A stretch of DNA of 33,463 bases from a virus. Its lineage: Duplodnaviria > Heunggongvirae > Uroviricota > Caudoviricetes. Under the pieces are notes generated by a model, which did not search any database, was not told the origin of the DNA, and saw only the letters and a program-made list of their open reading frames with translations. The stretch lies in IMG/VR virus record IMGVR_UViG_2548876860_000012, positions 1 through 33,463 of that record; one strand, given 5' to 3'. Numbering within the stretch: the first letter of the stretch is position 1; the number at the start of each line of letters is the position of its first letter. The translations under genes and the position numbers were made by a program. Positions 22,830-28,637 of the stretch are shown here, one piece after another.

Positions 22830-23290
22830 TCTTCACCCGATGCAGCGCGCTTGCTTCTTTTCCGTAAGCACCGCTCACGACGCGCCAGAAAATTGTTTCG
22901 TTCTGGCTGGGAGTGGCTTTCACGGAATGCCGCCATCCACACCGTTGCAGCACGACGGTATAAGCCCCTGGACTCCAGTTCTTCAGCCTGGCGGGTCAGG
23001 CACAAAATCACCCGGGGATCGTTAGTGCCGACATAGAAATTGCGCACAGGTCTGGTTTCACGAACTGGTTGTGGTTCCGACTCCTGCGCTCTCTCAGTCA
23101 GGCGCGGGAAATGTCTGCGTGTATCTCCTTCACAACGGTGAGCCACACGCCCACTCTGACGTAACTTGCTTGCTGACTGCAGAACGCGCTGCCGTGAGTA
23201 ACCTGCAAAAGCATCCGCAATGTCTCCGGAAGTACAGCCCGGATGGGCTTCAATGAATTTCTGAACGTCATTCAAAAGACTCATGCTCAC
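22796..23290 (-). CDS. Putative PerC/ANR-like regulator
   Basis: 164-aa basic ORF; the segment AEELESRGLYRRAATVWMAAF resembles PerC-family motifs. Weak call. Confidence 0.3.
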   Translation of the reverse strand: MSMSLLNDVQKFIEAHPGCTSGDIADAFAGYSRQRVLQSASKLRQSGRVAHRCEGDTRRHFPRLTERAQESEPQPVRETRPVRNFYVGTNDPRVILCLTRQAEELESRGLYRRAATVWMAAFRESHSQPERNNFLARRERCLRKRSKRAASGEEWYLSGNYVGA

Positions 23291-24228
23291 CCCCTGAATC
23301 CTGCCGGGATCTGGCTGTAGTCCACATTGTCGTAACTGGCTTTGAAGTACGGGTCTTCGCGTTTTTCTGTGTACGTGCTGACGGACGGCGATAAGCGCAG
23401 GGAAAGCTCATCCCATTTTTCCCGCAGCTTCGACGGGCTGAGCACGTTACGGCACCAGAACGGATCGCGGCTGACGCGGCTGTACATCTCGCAGATTTGT
23501 TTGTGAGTACGACCATCCTGCACACACATCAGGCGTATTTCGTTTGCCCATGCTGTCCAGTTCGGTTCTTTGGGACGTACCACTTCGCCGTCACATTCGG
23601 CGGCCTGCTCGTACAGAGCGATGATTTTTTTCCAGAGCCACTGTGCGCAGGTCAAATCATCCTGCGTCCCCCACTGGCGCTTTTTAGGGCTGAATACAAC
23701 CGCATCAGGATGGCGAGTTAAAAAATCCTGTTCAGCCGTCTGCGTGTCCGGTTGCGAAGCGTCCGGACGAGAAGGTTTTTTATCTGACGGATCATGTTTT
23801 GATTTTACTGACGGATCCCCGCCAGATTCTGACGGGTGAAAACCCGCTTTTTTGCCAGATTTCGACGCATCAAATTTTGACGGGTCAGATTTTGATGCGT
23901 CAGATTTTGACGGGTCAGAATCTGACAGTTGAGAAAATGCCGCTGCCTGAAGCTTCGCAACGTTAAGCTGATAAACATTCGACGCATTGCGGTTACCCTG
24001 GCGACGCGCCTTACGCGTTAACCAGCCTTCTGCTTCCAGCCGTGCGATAGCCGTTCTGACGGTACTCATTCCCGCGCCAATCTGGCGGGCAATGGTTTCA
24101 ATTGATGGCCAGCACACACCTTCGTCATTACTGAAATCAGCCAGGCGGGCCATAATTGCCACGCTGGATAATTTCATGCCTGATGCAGCGCAACCATCCC
24201 ATACATAGCCGGTTAATTTAGTGCTCAT
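23287..24228 (-). CDS. Replication initiation protein (O-like) with iteron-encoded linker
   Basis: 313-aa ORF with an HTH-like N-terminus, an internal repetitive linker (DPSKSDASKSDPSKFDASKS) encoded by 15-bp DNA repeats, and a C-terminal domain. Confidence 0.65.
   Translation of the reverse strand: MSTKLTGYVWDGCAASGMKLSSVAIMARLADFSNDEGVCWPSIETIARQIGAGMSTVRTAIARLEAEGWLTRKARRQGNRNASNVYQLNVAKLQAAAFSQLSDSDPSKSDASKSDPSKFDASKSGKKAGFHPSESGGDPSVKSKHDPSDKKPSRPDASQPDTQTAEQDFLTRHPDAVVFSPKKRQWGTQDDLTCAQWLWKKIIALYEQAAECDGEVVRPKEPNWTAWANEIRLMCVQDGRTHKQICEMYSRVSRDPFWCRNVLSPSKLREKWDELSLRLSPSVSTYTEKREDPYFKASYDNVDYSQIPAGFRG
23783..23930. repeat. Iteron-like direct repeats (candidate replication origin) inside the replication gene
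   Basis: About eight copies of a TGACGG(G/A)TCA-like core (tctgacggatca, actgacggatcc, tctgacgggtga, ttcgacgcatca, tttgacgggtca, tttgatgcgtca, tttgacgggtca, tctgacagttga); the last four are at 15-bp period. Confidence 0.6.
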
Positions 24229-24576: not shown

Positions 24577-25235
24577 GCGTTAGTTTCTCCACAGTCACGA
24601 CACGCCACGGCGCCCGGAGCTGCACACTCGCGGGCGTCACTACTTTCTGAAACGCAAAAGATTTTGTAGACCAGAGCTGCATGCTCCTGCAGCTTCGAAA
24701 TTGAGAGGTACAGCTCATCGTTAATTGCTGTCTTCTCATGCGGTTCCACCACACCGTCTTCAATTGCTGAACGAATCTGTCTGGAATAACTGCCGATCTG
24801 TTCAATGACTTCCAGCAGACGCTGGTTAATATCGGCATTGTCCACATCCTCGACGTCAGGAAGAGACACAAAGATGCCATTTGCAGACTGCGCCACAGCG
24901 TCAGCAATGAAGTGAGTTCCACCAGCACGTTGCAAAATCATTGCCCATCCCAGCGGGAAAATCTGATCGCCATCGGCACGAAGGCGGTTAAATAATGCGT
25001 TTTCTGTTACGTCCAGCCAGTCAGCAGCTTCAGCGTAACCCCCCGGCAACGCTGCGATAGTTTTTCTGACAGCTTTCACGTACCACTCAGGCTGTTTTTC
25101 TACTTTCCAGTGATGCTTACCCACGGTTAACTCCTCGTTTCTGTGGTTACGTTTACGCAGCTGAACCGCTAACTTTTGAATAGCACTCAGGTAATCCATC
25201 ATTTGGATTGGGGTAAATATCAGGACGCAGTTCAT
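24573..25235 (-). CDS. Early regulatory protein (CII-like/YdaT-like, tentative)
   Basis: 220-aa ORF directly downstream of cro-like; its 5' end overlaps cro by 83 nt, so the true start is probably internal. Confidence 0.35.
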
Positions 25236-25416
25236 GAGGGGTCACGGACCAGTTTCCCAACTCACAAAGTTGTAAAACCCGTTCTGACGGGACTTGATTG
25301 TTAATTACCCAATTAGCGACGGATTGAGTGGACTTAAAACCAAAGTGACGGGCTACTTCAGATAAAGATTTTCCCGCAGCTTTTACTGCTTTCTCTGTGT
25401 AGTTTTGAGATGACAT
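25153..25416 (-). CDS. Cro-like HTH regulator
   Basis: 87-aa ORF transcribed divergently from the CI gene, with GGAGGAG Shine-Dalgarno upstream and an HTH-like segment (SLSEVARHFGFKSTQSVANWV). Confidence 0.7.
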   Translation of the reverse strand: MSSQNYTEKAVKAAGKSLSEVARHFGFKSTQSVANWVINNQVPSERVLQLCELGNWSVTPHELRPDIYPNPNDGLPECYSKVSGSAA

Positions 25417-25532
25417 ACCTTTCTCCTCCGAAATTCAGAGGGATGATGCTACTTAAAATAGCAAAATGCAACTACTTAAAATAGAAATGACTAGCGTATG
25501 TGATGCGAGTAATCTTCTACCTATGGTAGAAG
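25417..25532. promoter_or_regulatory. Divergent immunity promoter/operator region (OR-like)
   Basis: Two copies of the 13-mer CTACTTAAAATAG 23 bp apart (25449-25461 and 25472-25484) between cro-like and cI-like genes, plus an inverted repeat CTTCTACC-TAT-GGTAGAAG at 25514-25532. Confidence 0.6.
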
Positions 25533-26227
25533 AACAGAAGTATCCAGATTTCGCCAAGAGACTAAACGAGCTAATGACAAACAAGGGAATTTCTGTCACC
25601 CAACTCAAAAGTCTTGTGGGCGTTACATATGAAATGGCGCGGCGATACACAATCGGCGCTGCGAAGCCTCGTGCCTCTGTCATGAATAAACTTGCATTGG
25701 CTCTGGGGGTATCAGCTTCATATTTAGAATATGGTGTTGGCGAGAGAGAAGGATGTAAGGAAATGGCAAGCATCCCCAATCCAACAAAACCCGATGTATA
25801 CAGGATAGAAGTTTTGGATCTTAGCGTTAGCGCAGGACCTGGGACCTATATGCTTTCAGACTATGTTGATGTGCTCTACGCCATTGAGTTCACAACAGAG
25901 CATGCCCGTTCTCTTTTCGGTAATCGTTCTCAAGATGATATTAAAGTTATGACTGTAAATGGCGACAGCATGTCCCCTACTCTAGTTTCCGGAGATCGAC
26001 TGTTTGTCGACATTTCTGTTCGCAACTTCCAAACTGATGGTGTTTACTCTTTCGTTTATGGTAAGACGTTCCACGTTAAACGTCTACAAATGCAAGGCAA
26101 CAAACTCGCCGTTCTTTCGGATAATCCAGCCTATGAGAAATGGTACATTGATGAGAAGTCCCAAGATCAACTTTATGTTATGGGCAAAGCATTGATACAC
26201 GAATCAATTAAATACAACCGGCTTTAG
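25466..26227 (+). CDS. CI-type prophage repressor (HTH plus S24 LexA-like peptidase domain)
   Basis: 253-aa ORF with an HTH N-terminus (ISVTQLKSLVGVTYEMARRY) and S24 motif VNGDSMSPTL. Start is ambiguous (25466 or the internal ATG at 25523). Confidence 0.8.
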   Translation: MQLLKIEMTSVCDASNLLPMVEEQKYPDFAKRLNELMTNKGISVTQLKSLVGVTYEMARRYTIGAAKPRASVMNKLALALGVSASYLEYGVGEREGCKEMASIPNPTKPDVYRIEVLDLSVSAGPGTYMLSDYVDVLYAIEFTTEHARSLFGNRSQDDIKVMTVNGDSMSPTLVSGDRLFVDISVRNFQTDGVYSFVYGKTFHVKRLQMQGNKLAVLSDNPAYEKWYIDEKSQDQLYVMGKALIHESIKYNRL

Positions 26228-26397
26228 TTCTTCATTTAGACTATAGAACTAAAGGTAAAAAAATAATATTTAGCAAGCAAGTGCTATTACTAATAGTTGT
26301 TTTACTCTCTTATTTTTATTAAACATTATCATTAACAATATAAAATAATTACCCAGCGTAAATTACAATATGCTGGGGGTCGAAAGGATAGAGAAAC

Positions 26398-27474
26398 ATG
26401 ACAAAATCAATTTGTTTTTTTAATCATAAAGGTGGGGTAAGTAAAACCACAACAACCTTCAATCTTGGATGGGCACTTGCGGATGAAGGCAAGAAAGTAT
26501 TGATGGTTGACCTTGATTCGCAATGTAATCTAACAGGAATGGTTCTTGGCTATGAAAAGATTGATGAGGGTTTAGATTCTTTTTATTCTAGCAGAGATAA
26601 CTTAACTCTTGGACCTATTGTAGAATATTTGATTAATGGCGGACAACCTGAAGCATACCTTGAAAAAGAAACGGGAAAATTACACCCTACACTGCATGAA
26701 AACCTTCTGCTTCTTCCCGGACATTTAGATGTTTCGGACTTAGATTCACAGATAAGTGTTTCTCTAAAAATTGCTGCTGGTATTCCTGCTACAAGAAATA
26801 TACCAGGGAACCTGCCAAAAATATTACAGCTAATCGCCTTGAAGAATAATATTGATTACATTCTTTATGATCTCAGCCCTAATGTTGGAGGTTTAAATGA
26901 AGTAGTTCTCATGTCAAGTGACTATTTTATCGTACCTGTAGCTCCAGACTTTTTTTGCTGGCAAGCAATTCGCTCTCTCTCAAAAAATATACCTCGCTGG
27001 CACAAAGAATTAGCATTATTTAAAGAAAATAATGATGGTAACTCTTCACAATCAATTAAAAATGCACCGCAGTTTCTAGGCATGATTCAGCAGAGATACA
27101 GGCCGCGTAAAGGAGCACCTGTAAAATCTTTCGAAAAATGGATGGCAGCTATCCGTGATGCTGTTGATTCGATCTTAGTGCCAAATCTAGAAAAAATTAC
27201 CTGCATAATTCCACGAGATAAAGTGCAACATGCAATTAACAAAACAACAGTCAGTGGAGATTTATCAGCCTATGATCTTGCGCATATTTCCGATTTCAAC
27301 TCATTAATCGCAATAAGCCAACAACTAGCGACACCTGTTTTCTCCATCAGTGATCAGCAAATTCGCGATTCAGGGCAATTTGGGCATGCCTTAAATACAA
27401 TGAAATCAAGCAGAGACGCCTTTAACGAACAATTTAAAGGGCTGGCTCAACGAGTTCTAGAACTTACAAAGTAA
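26398..27474 (+). CDS. Orphan ParA/MinD-family P-loop ATPase
   Basis: 358-aa ORF with deviant Walker A (NHKGGVSKTTTTFNL), A' (VLMVDLDSQ) and B-like (IDYILYDLSPN) motifs and AAGGA Shine-Dalgarno. AT-rich; no ParB-like partner in the window. Confidence 0.7.
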   Translation: MTKSICFFNHKGGVSKTTTTFNLGWALADEGKKVLMVDLDSQCNLTGMVLGYEKIDEGLDSFYSSRDNLTLGPIVEYLINGGQPEAYLEKETGKLHPTLHENLLLLPGHLDVSDLDSQISVSLKIAAGIPATRNIPGNLPKILQLIALKNNIDYILYDLSPNVGGLNEVVLMSSDYFIVPVAPDFFCWQAIRSLSKNIPRWHKELALFKENNDGNSSQSIKNAPQFLGMIQQRYRPRKGAPVKSFEKWMAAIRDAVDSILVPNLEKITCIIPRDKVQHAINKTTVSGDLSAYDLAHISDFNSLIAISQQLATPVFSISDQQIRDSGQFGHALNTMKSSRDAFNEQFKGLAQRVLELTK

Positions 27475-27481
27475 TGCATGT

Positions 27482-27515
27482 GCCCGGCCGCATAACCGGG
27501 CTTTACTCTTCTTTC
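27482..27515 (+). terminator. Rho-independent terminator after the ParA-like gene
   Basis: GCCCGG-ccgcataa-CCGGGC hairpin followed by the T-rich tract TTTACTCTTCTTTCT, starting 8 nt after the stop codon. Confidence 0.55.
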
Positions 27516-27694
27516 TCCCTGATTAATCTCATAAAAAACTCCCTCCTCATAATTCACTATGCTCAATACCTACTCCAACTTCGTGCGATATTTTCAGTTT
27601 ACAGCATAGTAAATCAGCAAAAACATTTAACTTTCAATTAATTATAGAAAAATCATAGACAACAACAAATATCTACTTTTTGTTGTTGATTTTT

Positions 27695-27717
27695 GCTACT
27701 TTAAGTAGCAATATAAT
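27695..27717 (+). promoter_or_regulatory. OL/pL-like operator-promoter
   Basis: 15-bp palindrome GCTACTTTAAGTAGC (27695-27709), closely related to the OR repeat, immediately upstream of a perfect TATAAT (27712-27717). Confidence 0.55.
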
Positions 27718-27918
27718 GTAAGCTATCACGGACAGGCAGGACGCCCACGAAGTAGCCGCCTGGGGCATATGAAGTCCAGGATGATTCGTTGAGTCATGTT
27801 GTGCCACTAGGCACTCATGTTAAAGCAGGTGTATGAAATGAAAGTCCAGATTTTAAACAATAACTGTGAAGTCGTTTGGGCGTAAAACATGACCGCGCGT
27901 AGACCAAGGGAGGAAAAA

Positions 27919-28248: not shown

Positions 28249-28449
28249 AACTATTTCCTTCTTGGCTATATGAAAACACCAAGATACCACCGAGCCTGAA
28301 GTGGTGAAAAGACAGGCACATAACAGCTAAGTATTTTCAACCAGAGAGAATCCTTAGCGTTGTGGTGAATGCGGCTCAGCGCACGCGGGTTAAGGTTGAG
28401 ACTGACAGTCGACCTTCTGTGGATACCCACCCGCCTGGTGTGCAACCTT

Positions 28450-28637
28450 CGCCAGGCACCGGGAGGCACCCGGCACCACAACTTTATGCTGTGTGTAGTC
28501 CTGGCGGTACCAGCTTGTACCCTTGCTTCCGGCTGGTACCTCCTTTTTACAAAACAGAGAAGAGCATCACCGGACGACGGGCTCATAACCCAATCCATCC
28601 GGGCGGCGGCCACCACAGGTGTTCTTCTCTGTTTTGT
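28450..28637 (+). ncRNA. Candidate structured RNA element in the pL operon leader
   Basis: GC-rich island with nested inverted repeats: CGCCAGG (28450-56) / CCTGGCG (28500-06); GGTACCAGC (28506-14) / GCTGGTACC (28532-40) followed by TCCTTTTTAC; perfect 15-bp repeat 28549-28563 / 28623-28637 around a 49-nt core. Its translation is Pro/Gly/Arg/His-rich and implausible as protein. Confidence 0.4.

Follow-up and report, generated by a model that had tools for sequence, protein, structure and literature searches.

Analysis of the 33,463-nucleotide stretch of the virus record IMGVR_UViG_2548876860_000012 (hereafter the window) revealed a set of five short palindromic sites of the form CTAC-N5-GTAG in a region that we take, with good confidence and on the strength of sequence comparison, to control immunity in an E. 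coli prophage of the SfV/SfII/CPS-53 type, where they would act as the operators of a lambda-type CI/Cro switch. Three of the sites (O_R1, O_R2 and O_R3) lie between cro and cI and two (O_L2 and O_L1) about 2.2 kb off, beyond the cargo (Table 1). CI and Cro very probably bind these 15-base palindromes, and while the kind of switch is well known, the immunity specificity is new and its DNA specificity previously undescribed. The fixed positions of the sites, their exclusive association with one repressor helix and the boundaries of the module are established by the comparisons presented below.

Five palindromic sites in the immunity region

The preliminary description of this DNA had pointed out three 15-mers, whose coordinates and sequences (GCTACTTAAAATAGC, ACTACTTAAAATAGA and GCTACTTTAAGTAGC), together with those of a TATAAT at 27712–27717, turned out to be exact, as did the placement of the first two between a YdaS-family cro-like gene and a cI-like gene with HTH_3 and Peptidase_S24 domains. 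The pattern proposed for all three was accurate in its core, CTACTT-N-AARTAG, but the second site fits it with two mismatches, both at its end bases. A search of the whole 33.5-kb window on both strands for GCTACTTNAARTAGC with at most two mismatches returned three places alone (25448, 25471 and 27695), compared to 0.23 ± 0.49 matches in shuffled sequences, none of 100 shuffles reaching the observed count. The looser core CTAC-N5-RTAG added one site at 25517–25529 (6 strand matches versus 0.71 expected; 0 of 100 shuffles). No further copies were found scattered in coding regions, which speaks against a generic repeat. The assignment of the sites as CI/Cro operators at the right (OR) and left (OL) operator regions is backed by their position, their repressor partner and the edges of the module, but it was incomplete in comprising three sites instead of five, O_R3 and O_L2 having been overlooked.

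Across the family, operator columns are 0.94–0.99 identical. O_R1 follows the consensus (G/A)CTACTTAA(A/G)(G/A)TAG(C/A/T) with a column identity of 0.94 among 23 distinct operator sets, and O_R2 (ACTACTnAAAATAGA; column identity 0.98) is invariant in the same sets but for its central base. O_R3, identical in 20 of the 23 sets (consensus TCTACCTATGGTAGA), forms part of a longer perfect palindrome, CTTCTACC-TAT-GGTAGAAG (25514–25532), with the ATG at its centre. As it is found as non-coding sequence, upstream of the ATG, in locus L030 and in the Aggregatibacter phage Aaphi23, O_R3 is no coding-sequence artefact. On the left side, O_L1 is a good palindrome with the family consensus nCTACTTT(A/T)AGTAGC, and O_L2, which reads TCTACTTTTTGTAGT in most relatives (family consensus TCTACTTTTnGT(A/T)GT), is the weakest of the five sites; the spacing between the two equals that between O_R1 and O_R2 (23 bp). 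The left half of O_L2 is also enclosed by a 10-bp inverted repeat, CAACAACAAA/TTTGTTGTTG (27660–27688). This repeat was dropped as a candidate part of the switch, being confined to one lineage (the window, L029 and L059) and not found in other family members.

Sites and recognition helix change together

In about 60 related loci, reaching from E. coli to Aaphi23, CTAC-N5-GTAG sites occupy fixed positions while the surrounding DNA has diverged. The C-terminal domain is nearly invariant among relatives of CI, whereas the N-terminal helix-turn-helix (HTH) domain comes in several unrelated types. Loci with the HTH type of the window, from Citrobacter/Klebsiella, C. koseri and Gibbsiella, encode CI proteins that are 70–76% identical overall; they retain the site offsets of −75, −52 and −7 from the cI ATG with diverged spacers, and each has one or two further copies of the site downstream of cI, whatever lies between. 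The block from O_L2 to O_L1 (27672–27709), including the TTGATT −35 hexamer and the −10, stays conserved in 21 distinct arms regardless of its surroundings. In a reverse test, viral contigs were scanned with the paired O_R1–O_R2 DNA pattern alone, which resulted in 53 viral contigs, and all of those with enough flank carry O_R3 about 45 bp further along as well as one or two copies 0.1–2.6 kb away.

Among the 61 loci analyzed (the window and L019–L078), the cI start and N-terminus were readable automatically in 58, and all 58 encode [ST]YEM[AV]RRY at the position of the recognition helix, even where the rest of the N-terminal domain is strongly diverged or the S24 domain is lacking; with the distant loci included, the sites go with the helix [ST]YEM[AVI]RRY. 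The position of the helix in CI was taken from the Pfam HTH_3 match and from profile alignments to solved XRE-type HTH proteins. In contrast, CTAC-N5-RTAG was not found at all in 17 control loci, namely SfII and 16 loci in which the same C-terminal domain is combined with HTH domains of other groups. A scan of species-representative genomes with the CI alignment had returned 16 loci, almost all with HTH groups other than that of the window, and these served as controls. Most of the control loci have their own palindrome, common to OR and a place downstream of cI (TTAACC-N4-GGTTAA, ATAAC-N5-GTTAT, TAGCAAT...ATTGCTA, TACC-N4/5-GGTA or AATAGC...GCTATT). As the other HTH groups come with their own palindromes and without CTAC-N5-RTAG, we concluded that operator sequence and HTH domain change together, and the earlier proposal that the sites set the immunity specificity is supported across the loci.

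Like the sites themselves, the intergenic DNA around them is AT-rich (GC content 0.34–0.37), which could raise the suspicion of a chance or generic AT-rich repeat without function. However, none of the 100 shuffles reached the observed count, the positions are kept across genera while neighbouring bases vary, and the motif is absent from the 17 control loci, so this reading was excluded and its probability is practically negligible.

The same helix and layout were identified in Aaphi23, in Providencia phage PSTCR8lys, in Escherichia phage Phi06_2987 and in two more viral contigs. In Aaphi23, O_R1 is followed by O_R2 at +23 bp and O_R3 at +44 bp, with two sites 2.3 kb downstream. A tblastn search with the N-terminal domain of CI against phage records returned nothing above 54% identity, which indicates that no characterized phage has the same immunity; three of the distant matches (at most 54%) were later found to share the helix and the operators. 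Full-text literature searches for the operator strings and for Aaphi23 operators returned nothing relevant. As a separate observation, the YEMARRY helix and all operator positions are retained with three repressors of 138–149 amino acids (L028, L068 and L075) that lack the S24 domain; judging from their sequences, these would need another route of induction, e.g. an antirepressor.

Comparison with SfII delimits the exchangeable unit. The flanks in the window and in phage SfII are 97–99% identical up to 25148 and from 27728 on, and everything between is replaced; as the SfII homology stops and restarts at these points, the exchangeable immunity module corresponds to 25149–27727. Its right edge lies 10 bp beyond the TATAAT, just past the OL/pL block.

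Table 1. Coordinates of operators, predicted promoter elements, genes and other features of the immunity region in the window.
Feature	Position	Strand	Sequence and remarks
O_R1	25448–25462		GCTACTTAAAATAGC; good palindrome inside the pR spacer
O_R2	25471–25485		ACTACTTAAAATAGA; imperfect palindrome, 23 bp from O_R1
O_R3	25516–25530		TCTACCTATGGTAGA; over the cI start codon and the predicted pRM start
O_L2	27672–27686		TCTACTTTTTGTTGT; weak, degenerate; 23 bp from O_L1
O_L1	27695–27709		GCTACTTTAAGTAGC; perfect palindrome within the pL spacer
Predicted pR −10	25443–25448	minus	CATCAT; first base is the last base of O_R1
Predicted pR −35	25466–25471	minus	TTGCAT; 1-bp overlap with O_R2; TTG conserved; 17 bp from the −10
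Predicted pL −35	27686–27691	plus	TTGATT
pL −10 region	27709–27717	plus	CAATAT (27709–27714) overlaps TATAAT (27712–27717)
Predicted pRM −35	25487–25492	plus	ATGACT; adjoins O_R2; column identity 0.96
Predicted pRM −10	25510–25515	plus	TAATCT; 7 nt upstream of the cI ATG; column identity 0.97
cro-like gene	25153–25416	minus	87 amino acids; YdaS family; opens the pR operon; Pfam YdaS_toxin (E = 2e-11); PHROG 35, transcriptional repressor
cI-like repressor gene	25523–26227	plus	234 amino acids; Pfam HTH_3 and Peptidase_S24; PGAP start is this ATG
Cargo slot cI–OL	26228–27671	plus	From the cI stop to O_L2
ParA-like ATPase gene	26398–27474	plus	AAA_31 (E = 2e-29); PHROG 164
Intrinsic-terminator-like hairpin	27482–27501		After the ParA-like gene
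Structured RNA	27724–27795	plus	At the start (5′ end) of the pL transcript; beyond the immunity module proper; from the mosaic boundary at 27728

Predicted promoters pR, pL and pRM

Viewed in their directions of transcription, the predicted pR and pL are built alike, with O2 first, then the TTG of the −35 from O2's last base, O1 and the −10. Eight bp beginning with TTG separate O2 and O1, O1 fills the 17-bp spacer and the −10 starts at O1's last base; pR reads TCTATTTTAAGTAGT / TGCATTTT / GCTATTTTAAGTAGC / ATCAT and pL reads TCTACTTTTTGTTGT / TGATTTTT / GCTACTTTAAGTAGC / AATAT. The pR −10 register is occupied by CATTAT, CATCAT or TATTAT, with A2 and T6 at 100% in 22 distinct pR arms; among 21 distinct pL arms, 18 have TTGATT or TTGATA as the −35.

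The perfect TATAAT next to O_L1, previously regarded as part of pL, fared less well in this comparison. In the register of CAATAT (offset 0), which keeps a 17-bp spacer from TTGATT, A2 is present in 100% and T6 in 95% of the 21 pL arms, whereas the TATAAT register (offset +3) has T6 in 48%, a perfect TATAAT in one of the 21 arms, and would require a 20-bp spacer. By conservation and spacer length, TATAAT was judged less likely than CAATAT, and it is probably not the conserved pL −10.

Upstream of cI, the hexamers ATGACT and TAATCT enclose a 17-nt spacer that is constant in length and variable in sequence (column identity 0.68). The −10 variants TAACCT, TACTCT, TATGCT and TATCTT all keep T1, A2 and T6. 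At the place of pRM, Aaphi23 has TTGAAT-17-TATCTT and L070 has TTGGTG, both without an ATG. Conserved hexamers around a variable spacer of fixed length point to a pRM transcript that starts at or beside the cI ATG.

An inverted repeat, CCTCTGA-att-TCGGAGG (25425–25441, cro-sense strand), was also observed upstream of the cro ATG, following the predicted pR −10; the cro Shine-Dalgarno sequence is covered by its 3′ arm. It occurs in 17 of 19 distinct relatives, and its arms covary between lineages (e.g. TTCCTCTA/TAGAGGAG and CCTGTGA/TCACAGG).

A proposed lambda-type CI/Cro switch and its alternatives

In the switch that we propose, a CI dimer on O1, cooperatively aided by a second dimer on O2 (23 bp away, centre to centre), would block RNA polymerase, and occupancy of O1 and O2 would silence the early operons transcribed from pR and pL. 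O_R2, which abuts the −35 of pRM, could in addition activate the transcription of cI, whose mRNA would start at the ATG or within 1–2 bases of it and would thus probably be leaderless. With O_R3 placed on the cI start point, high levels of CI, or Cro, would turn cI off. Binding, cooperativity and the order in which the sites are filled are steps that we infer. As CI has an S24 domain with an Ala-Gly site and a Ser/Lys dyad, induction would be expected to proceed by RecA-stimulated self-cleavage.

Several observations weigh against this reading. O_L2 of the window is degenerate, with GTTG instead of GTAG, CI and Cro always co-occur, so that the reader of each site is not separable by co-occurrence alone, and the inverted repeat in the cro leader starts right after the −10, too close for a normal pR transcript to contain it fully. 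The promoter scanner, used at a 9-of-12 threshold, called neither pR, nor pL, nor the proposed pRM, and its sole sigma-70-like match in OR was TTAAAA-18-TAAAAT (9 of 12), within O_R1 and O_R2. Furthermore, the centre of O_R2 lies near −44/−45 of the proposed pRM start, compared to −42 in lambda, which makes pRM activation uncertain.

The scanner match leads to a different wiring of cI with the same operators, in which a promoter consisting of TTAAAA (25453–25458) and TAAAAT (25477–25482), inside O_R1/O_R2, would start transcription near 25487. Either ATG 25487 would then be the true start, giving a CI of 246 amino acids, or a leader of about 34 nt would precede ATG 25523, and CI would solely repress its own synthesis, without activation. 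Many gene callers do start CI at ATG 25487 and report 246-amino-acid forms, and an in-frame stop between the two ATGs is absent from all 25 distinct sequences. However, the two hexamers would be conserved anyway, being inside operators, and the DNA between the ATGs shows no codon periodicity (variability of 0.26, 0.24 and 0.30 at codon positions 1–3); its 17-nt stretch has a fixed length and a variable sequence and is bordered by hexamers keeping the −10 pattern T1/A2/T6. PGAP starts cI at 25523, and the ATG equivalent to 25487 is missing from Aaphi23 and L070. We therefore consider this wiring unlikely, and 25487, like 25466, was judged a less likely start of cI than 25523.

A second alternative concerns the protein that reads the palindromes, which instead of CI could mainly be Cro or a further early regulator, e.g. 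the CII-like YmfL. A YdaS-family Cro and a CII-like gene are present with the sites in nearly all loci, and co-occurrence cannot assign the reader. In contrast, the two most distant loci (L068 and L075) retain the CI helix and the operators unchanged while the Cro HTH differs (AGLKT.W.V.KW versus FGFKSTQSVANW). The pL sites are far from any CII-type promoter, which fits a repressor, and the target of the one YdaT studied, TTGATT-N6-AATCAA (PMC9986795), is a different sequence. A switch in which CI reads the sites is thus retained, and the chance that Cro or YmfL is their main reader appears very small.

Relationship to known switches

The proposed switch resembles that of lambda in that cI and cro diverge from a region with three operators, further copies of the operator are present at pL about 2.2–2.4 kb away and neighbouring sites are spaced by 23–24 bp, with O1 and O2 placed on the predicted early promoter and an operator beside the predicted pRM −35. 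The probably leaderless cI, the combination of an HTH and an S24 self-cleaving domain in CI and accessory genes between cI and pL with likely prophage-side expression (rexAB in lambda) are also shared. It differs in its 15-bp CTAC-N5-GTAG operators, compared to the 17-mer of lambda, in having two recognizable OL sites instead of three, and in the place of O_R3, which lies 45 bp from O_R2 on the pRM start and the cI ATG and not between the pRM hexamers. Moreover, Cro belongs to the YdaS family, and no N gene is recognizable downstream of pL.

The closest experimentally studied relative is the PaaR2/YdaS/YdaT switch of CP-933P from E. coli O157:H7, for which a leaderless repressor gene and a cargo before PL have been shown (PMC8630535). 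Both combine a YdaS-family Cro with a CII-like second gene in the pR operon (YdaT or Phage_CP76), a leaderless repressor gene (here predicted), operator copies at PL whose hexamers match PR, and cargo between the repressor gene and PL, which in CP-933P is the paaA2-parE2 toxin-antitoxin pair (PMC8630535). However, PaaR2 has no S24 domain, unlike CI of the window, and the 18-bp repeats of CP-933P (consensus GTTTAGTAA; PMC8630535) are unrelated to CTAC-N5-GTAG. The window thus has neither of the features of a PaaR2/RacR-type switch, i.e. a repressor without self-cleavage domain and GTTTAGTAA-type operators.

With the immunity regions of SfII, SfV and SfIV, the window shares the phage backbone (97–99% identical on both sides) and the gene order. 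The C-terminal domain of CI is related to that of SfII (36% identity overall), whereas SfII has an unrelated Cro, a different HTH, TCACGCAAT-type repeats and no cargo gene. Judged from the two sequences, the difference between the window and SfII is a classic immunity-module swap.

The ParA-like gene and the cargo slot

Homology to the relatives ends at the cI stop (26220–26231) and resumes at 27664–27672, where O_L2 begins; in L027, the sole homology after cI is 27672–27710, the O_L2–O_L1 block itself. The slot in between holds at least 12 alternative cargo layouts (loci L019–L077). These include three different ParA-like ATPases, coiled-coil membrane proteins, a combination of HipA_2 and DUF3037 proteins (Pfam labels), a PD-T4-6/Stk2-like kinase next to a second gene for 246 amino acids that is putatively PP2C-phosphatase-like as read from its sequence, a gene pair that is putatively HigB/HigA-like, and nothing in seven loci. 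In the window, the ParA-like gene and its flanks have a GC content of 0.27–0.38, compared to 0.51 window-wide.

The ParA-like gene is best seen as a replaceable moron or cargo gene in the rexAB position, travelling independently of the switch. It had been described as part of a repressor-controlled cassette, and its position between cI and OL is correct, but control by CI is not supported. As the gene is co-oriented with and downstream of cI and no terminator was predicted between the two, it is more likely expressed in lysogens, by analogy to lambda rexAB, and its repression by CI is not expected. A PADLOC match of the ParA-like protein (PDC-M28B) is restricted to the P-loop (residues 3–40) and was not counted as membership in a defence family.

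The palindromes flank the ParA-like gene, and as ParA systems use palindromic centromeres, they could be read as parS-type centromere-like or regulatory sites of that gene. The same sites and layout are, however, present in loci with unrelated cargo and in the seven cargo-free loci, in which the gap between cI and OL measures 90–143 bp, so that the palindromes do not serve the ParA-like gene. In addition, there is no ParB-like gene, and the sites coincide with predicted promoter elements. A centromere-like role is thus highly improbable, and the sites are better explained as operators of the CI/Cro switch.

A structured leader RNA downstream of pL

Directly to the right of the immunity module, homology with many otherwise different phages starts at 27728 and ends near 27790. 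Comparison of 38 distinct gapless variants revealed a common fold with a closing helix (27728–27732 with 27785–27789), a small hairpin, a second hairpin (27759–27763 with 27776–27780) and an invariant core of 26 nt, GGCAGGACGCCCACGAAGUAGCCGCC, amounting to about 65 paired-and-core nucleotides. Covariation supports this fold, with 88.8% of cells paired compared to 70.9% in shuffles, and with 100 double-change cells, whereas shuffles gave 30.5 ± 4.2 (0 of 500 reached the observed count) and slid controls no more than 27; at three positions, all four Watson-Crick pair types occur. The plus strand was assumed, being the direction of pL, as G-U counts alone do not tell the strands apart.

No match was obtained in Rfam, even at E ≤ 10 on 201 nt, none of 51 phage records carries an annotation of this RNA, and a full-text literature search for its core returned nothing relevant. 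We thus regard it as a previously undescribed RNA, which is predicted from its position to be transcribed first from pL once CI leaves O_L1/O_L2. A covariance model (R1) identified exactly one copy in each locus that has the RNA, invariably on the side of pL and irrespective of immunity type. Beyond the many temperate phages that share the RNA, the virulent T5-like Providencia phage PR1 carries a full-length copy in its pre-early leader.

A boxA-like sequence follows 10–45 nt after the RNA in 27 of 116 distinct leaders (e.g. in loci L002, L022, L034 and L040), and many of the boxA-bearing leaders have a hairpin (AAGCGCCCUACAGGACGCUU) followed by AGCUCUUUAACAA, in the boxB-then-boxA order of rrn leaders. 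No boxA partner follows the copy of the window.

The RNA resembles put of HK022 in that both are structured RNAs of about 65–70 nt with which the pL transcript opens, in phages without an annotated N gene. However, put is described as a V-shaped arrangement of two neighbouring stem-loops (PMC9378689), whereas the leader RNA has a closing helix around two hairpins and is present in one copy per phage, with no copy on the pR side. Membership in the HK022 put family was rejected, as the covariance model gave no match within the immunity region of HK022 and did not detect another copy elsewhere in the window. In the genome paper of SfIV, the Q antiterminator is the sole one named. We tentatively raise the possibility, which at present seems rather unlikely, that the RNA represents a new class of cis-acting early-transcript RNA, e.g. 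a put-like or Nus-recruiting antitermination element that replaces N in SfV/ST64B-type phages.

Genes of the window and prophage setting

The window belongs to an E. coli prophage of the SfII/SfV/CPS-53 kind, with tRNA-Thr and proA as neighbours of the insertion. The divergent cro and cI genes leave a gap of 106 bp, which contains the three right-hand CTAC-N5-GTAG sites, and in all 23 distinct related loci a YdaS-family Cro is encoded divergently to cI. In the pR operon, cro is followed by the CII-like YmfL (Pfam Phage_CP76, E = 4.5e-13) and then by replication genes. CI comprises an N-terminal HTH with the helix T35-YEMARRY-42 and a C-terminal S24 self-cleavage domain, in which A104-G105 (the Ala-Gly cleavage site), S149 and K186 (the Ser/Lys dyad) are invariant in 19 relatives. 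A PDB sequence search returned no close structure, and a profile search gave weak XRE-HTH and LexA matches alone. Farther downstream, yfdP/Q/R-type genes and a lambda-type integrase gene were found.

Two further observations were made outside the module. A replication-initiator-like protein (HTH_36/DnaD_N; 23287–24228, minus strand) contains a run of SDPSK/SDASK peptide repeats, and the DNA repeats beneath this run could, by analogy to the lambda O gene, be origin iterons. About 540 nt downstream of the pL leader, positions 28329–28551 (plus strand) gave a full-length, sub-threshold match to the Rfam small RNA STnc100 (41.1 bits compared to a gathering score of 47; E = 1.3e-6).

Implications

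The general understanding of such switches is unchanged by these findings. They yield, however, a testable operator definition for one immunity group, consisting of the 15-bp CTAC-N5-GTAG palindrome, its five positions and the helix [ST]YEM[AVI]RRY. The cassette is nearly intact in about 2% of complete E. coli genomes (109 of 5426), and the same specificity occurs in phages of Citrobacter, Klebsiella, Gibbsiella, Providencia and Aggregatibacter. The leader RNA could matter more than the switch itself, as it may bear on early antitermination in SfV/ST64B-type phages. The stretch from the cI stop to O_L2 provides the address of a cargo hotspot for defence-type genes, and the repressor and its sites offer a further orthogonal repressor/operator pair for synthetic circuits. 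For the prophages themselves, the operator definition allows the prediction of hetero-immunity between them.

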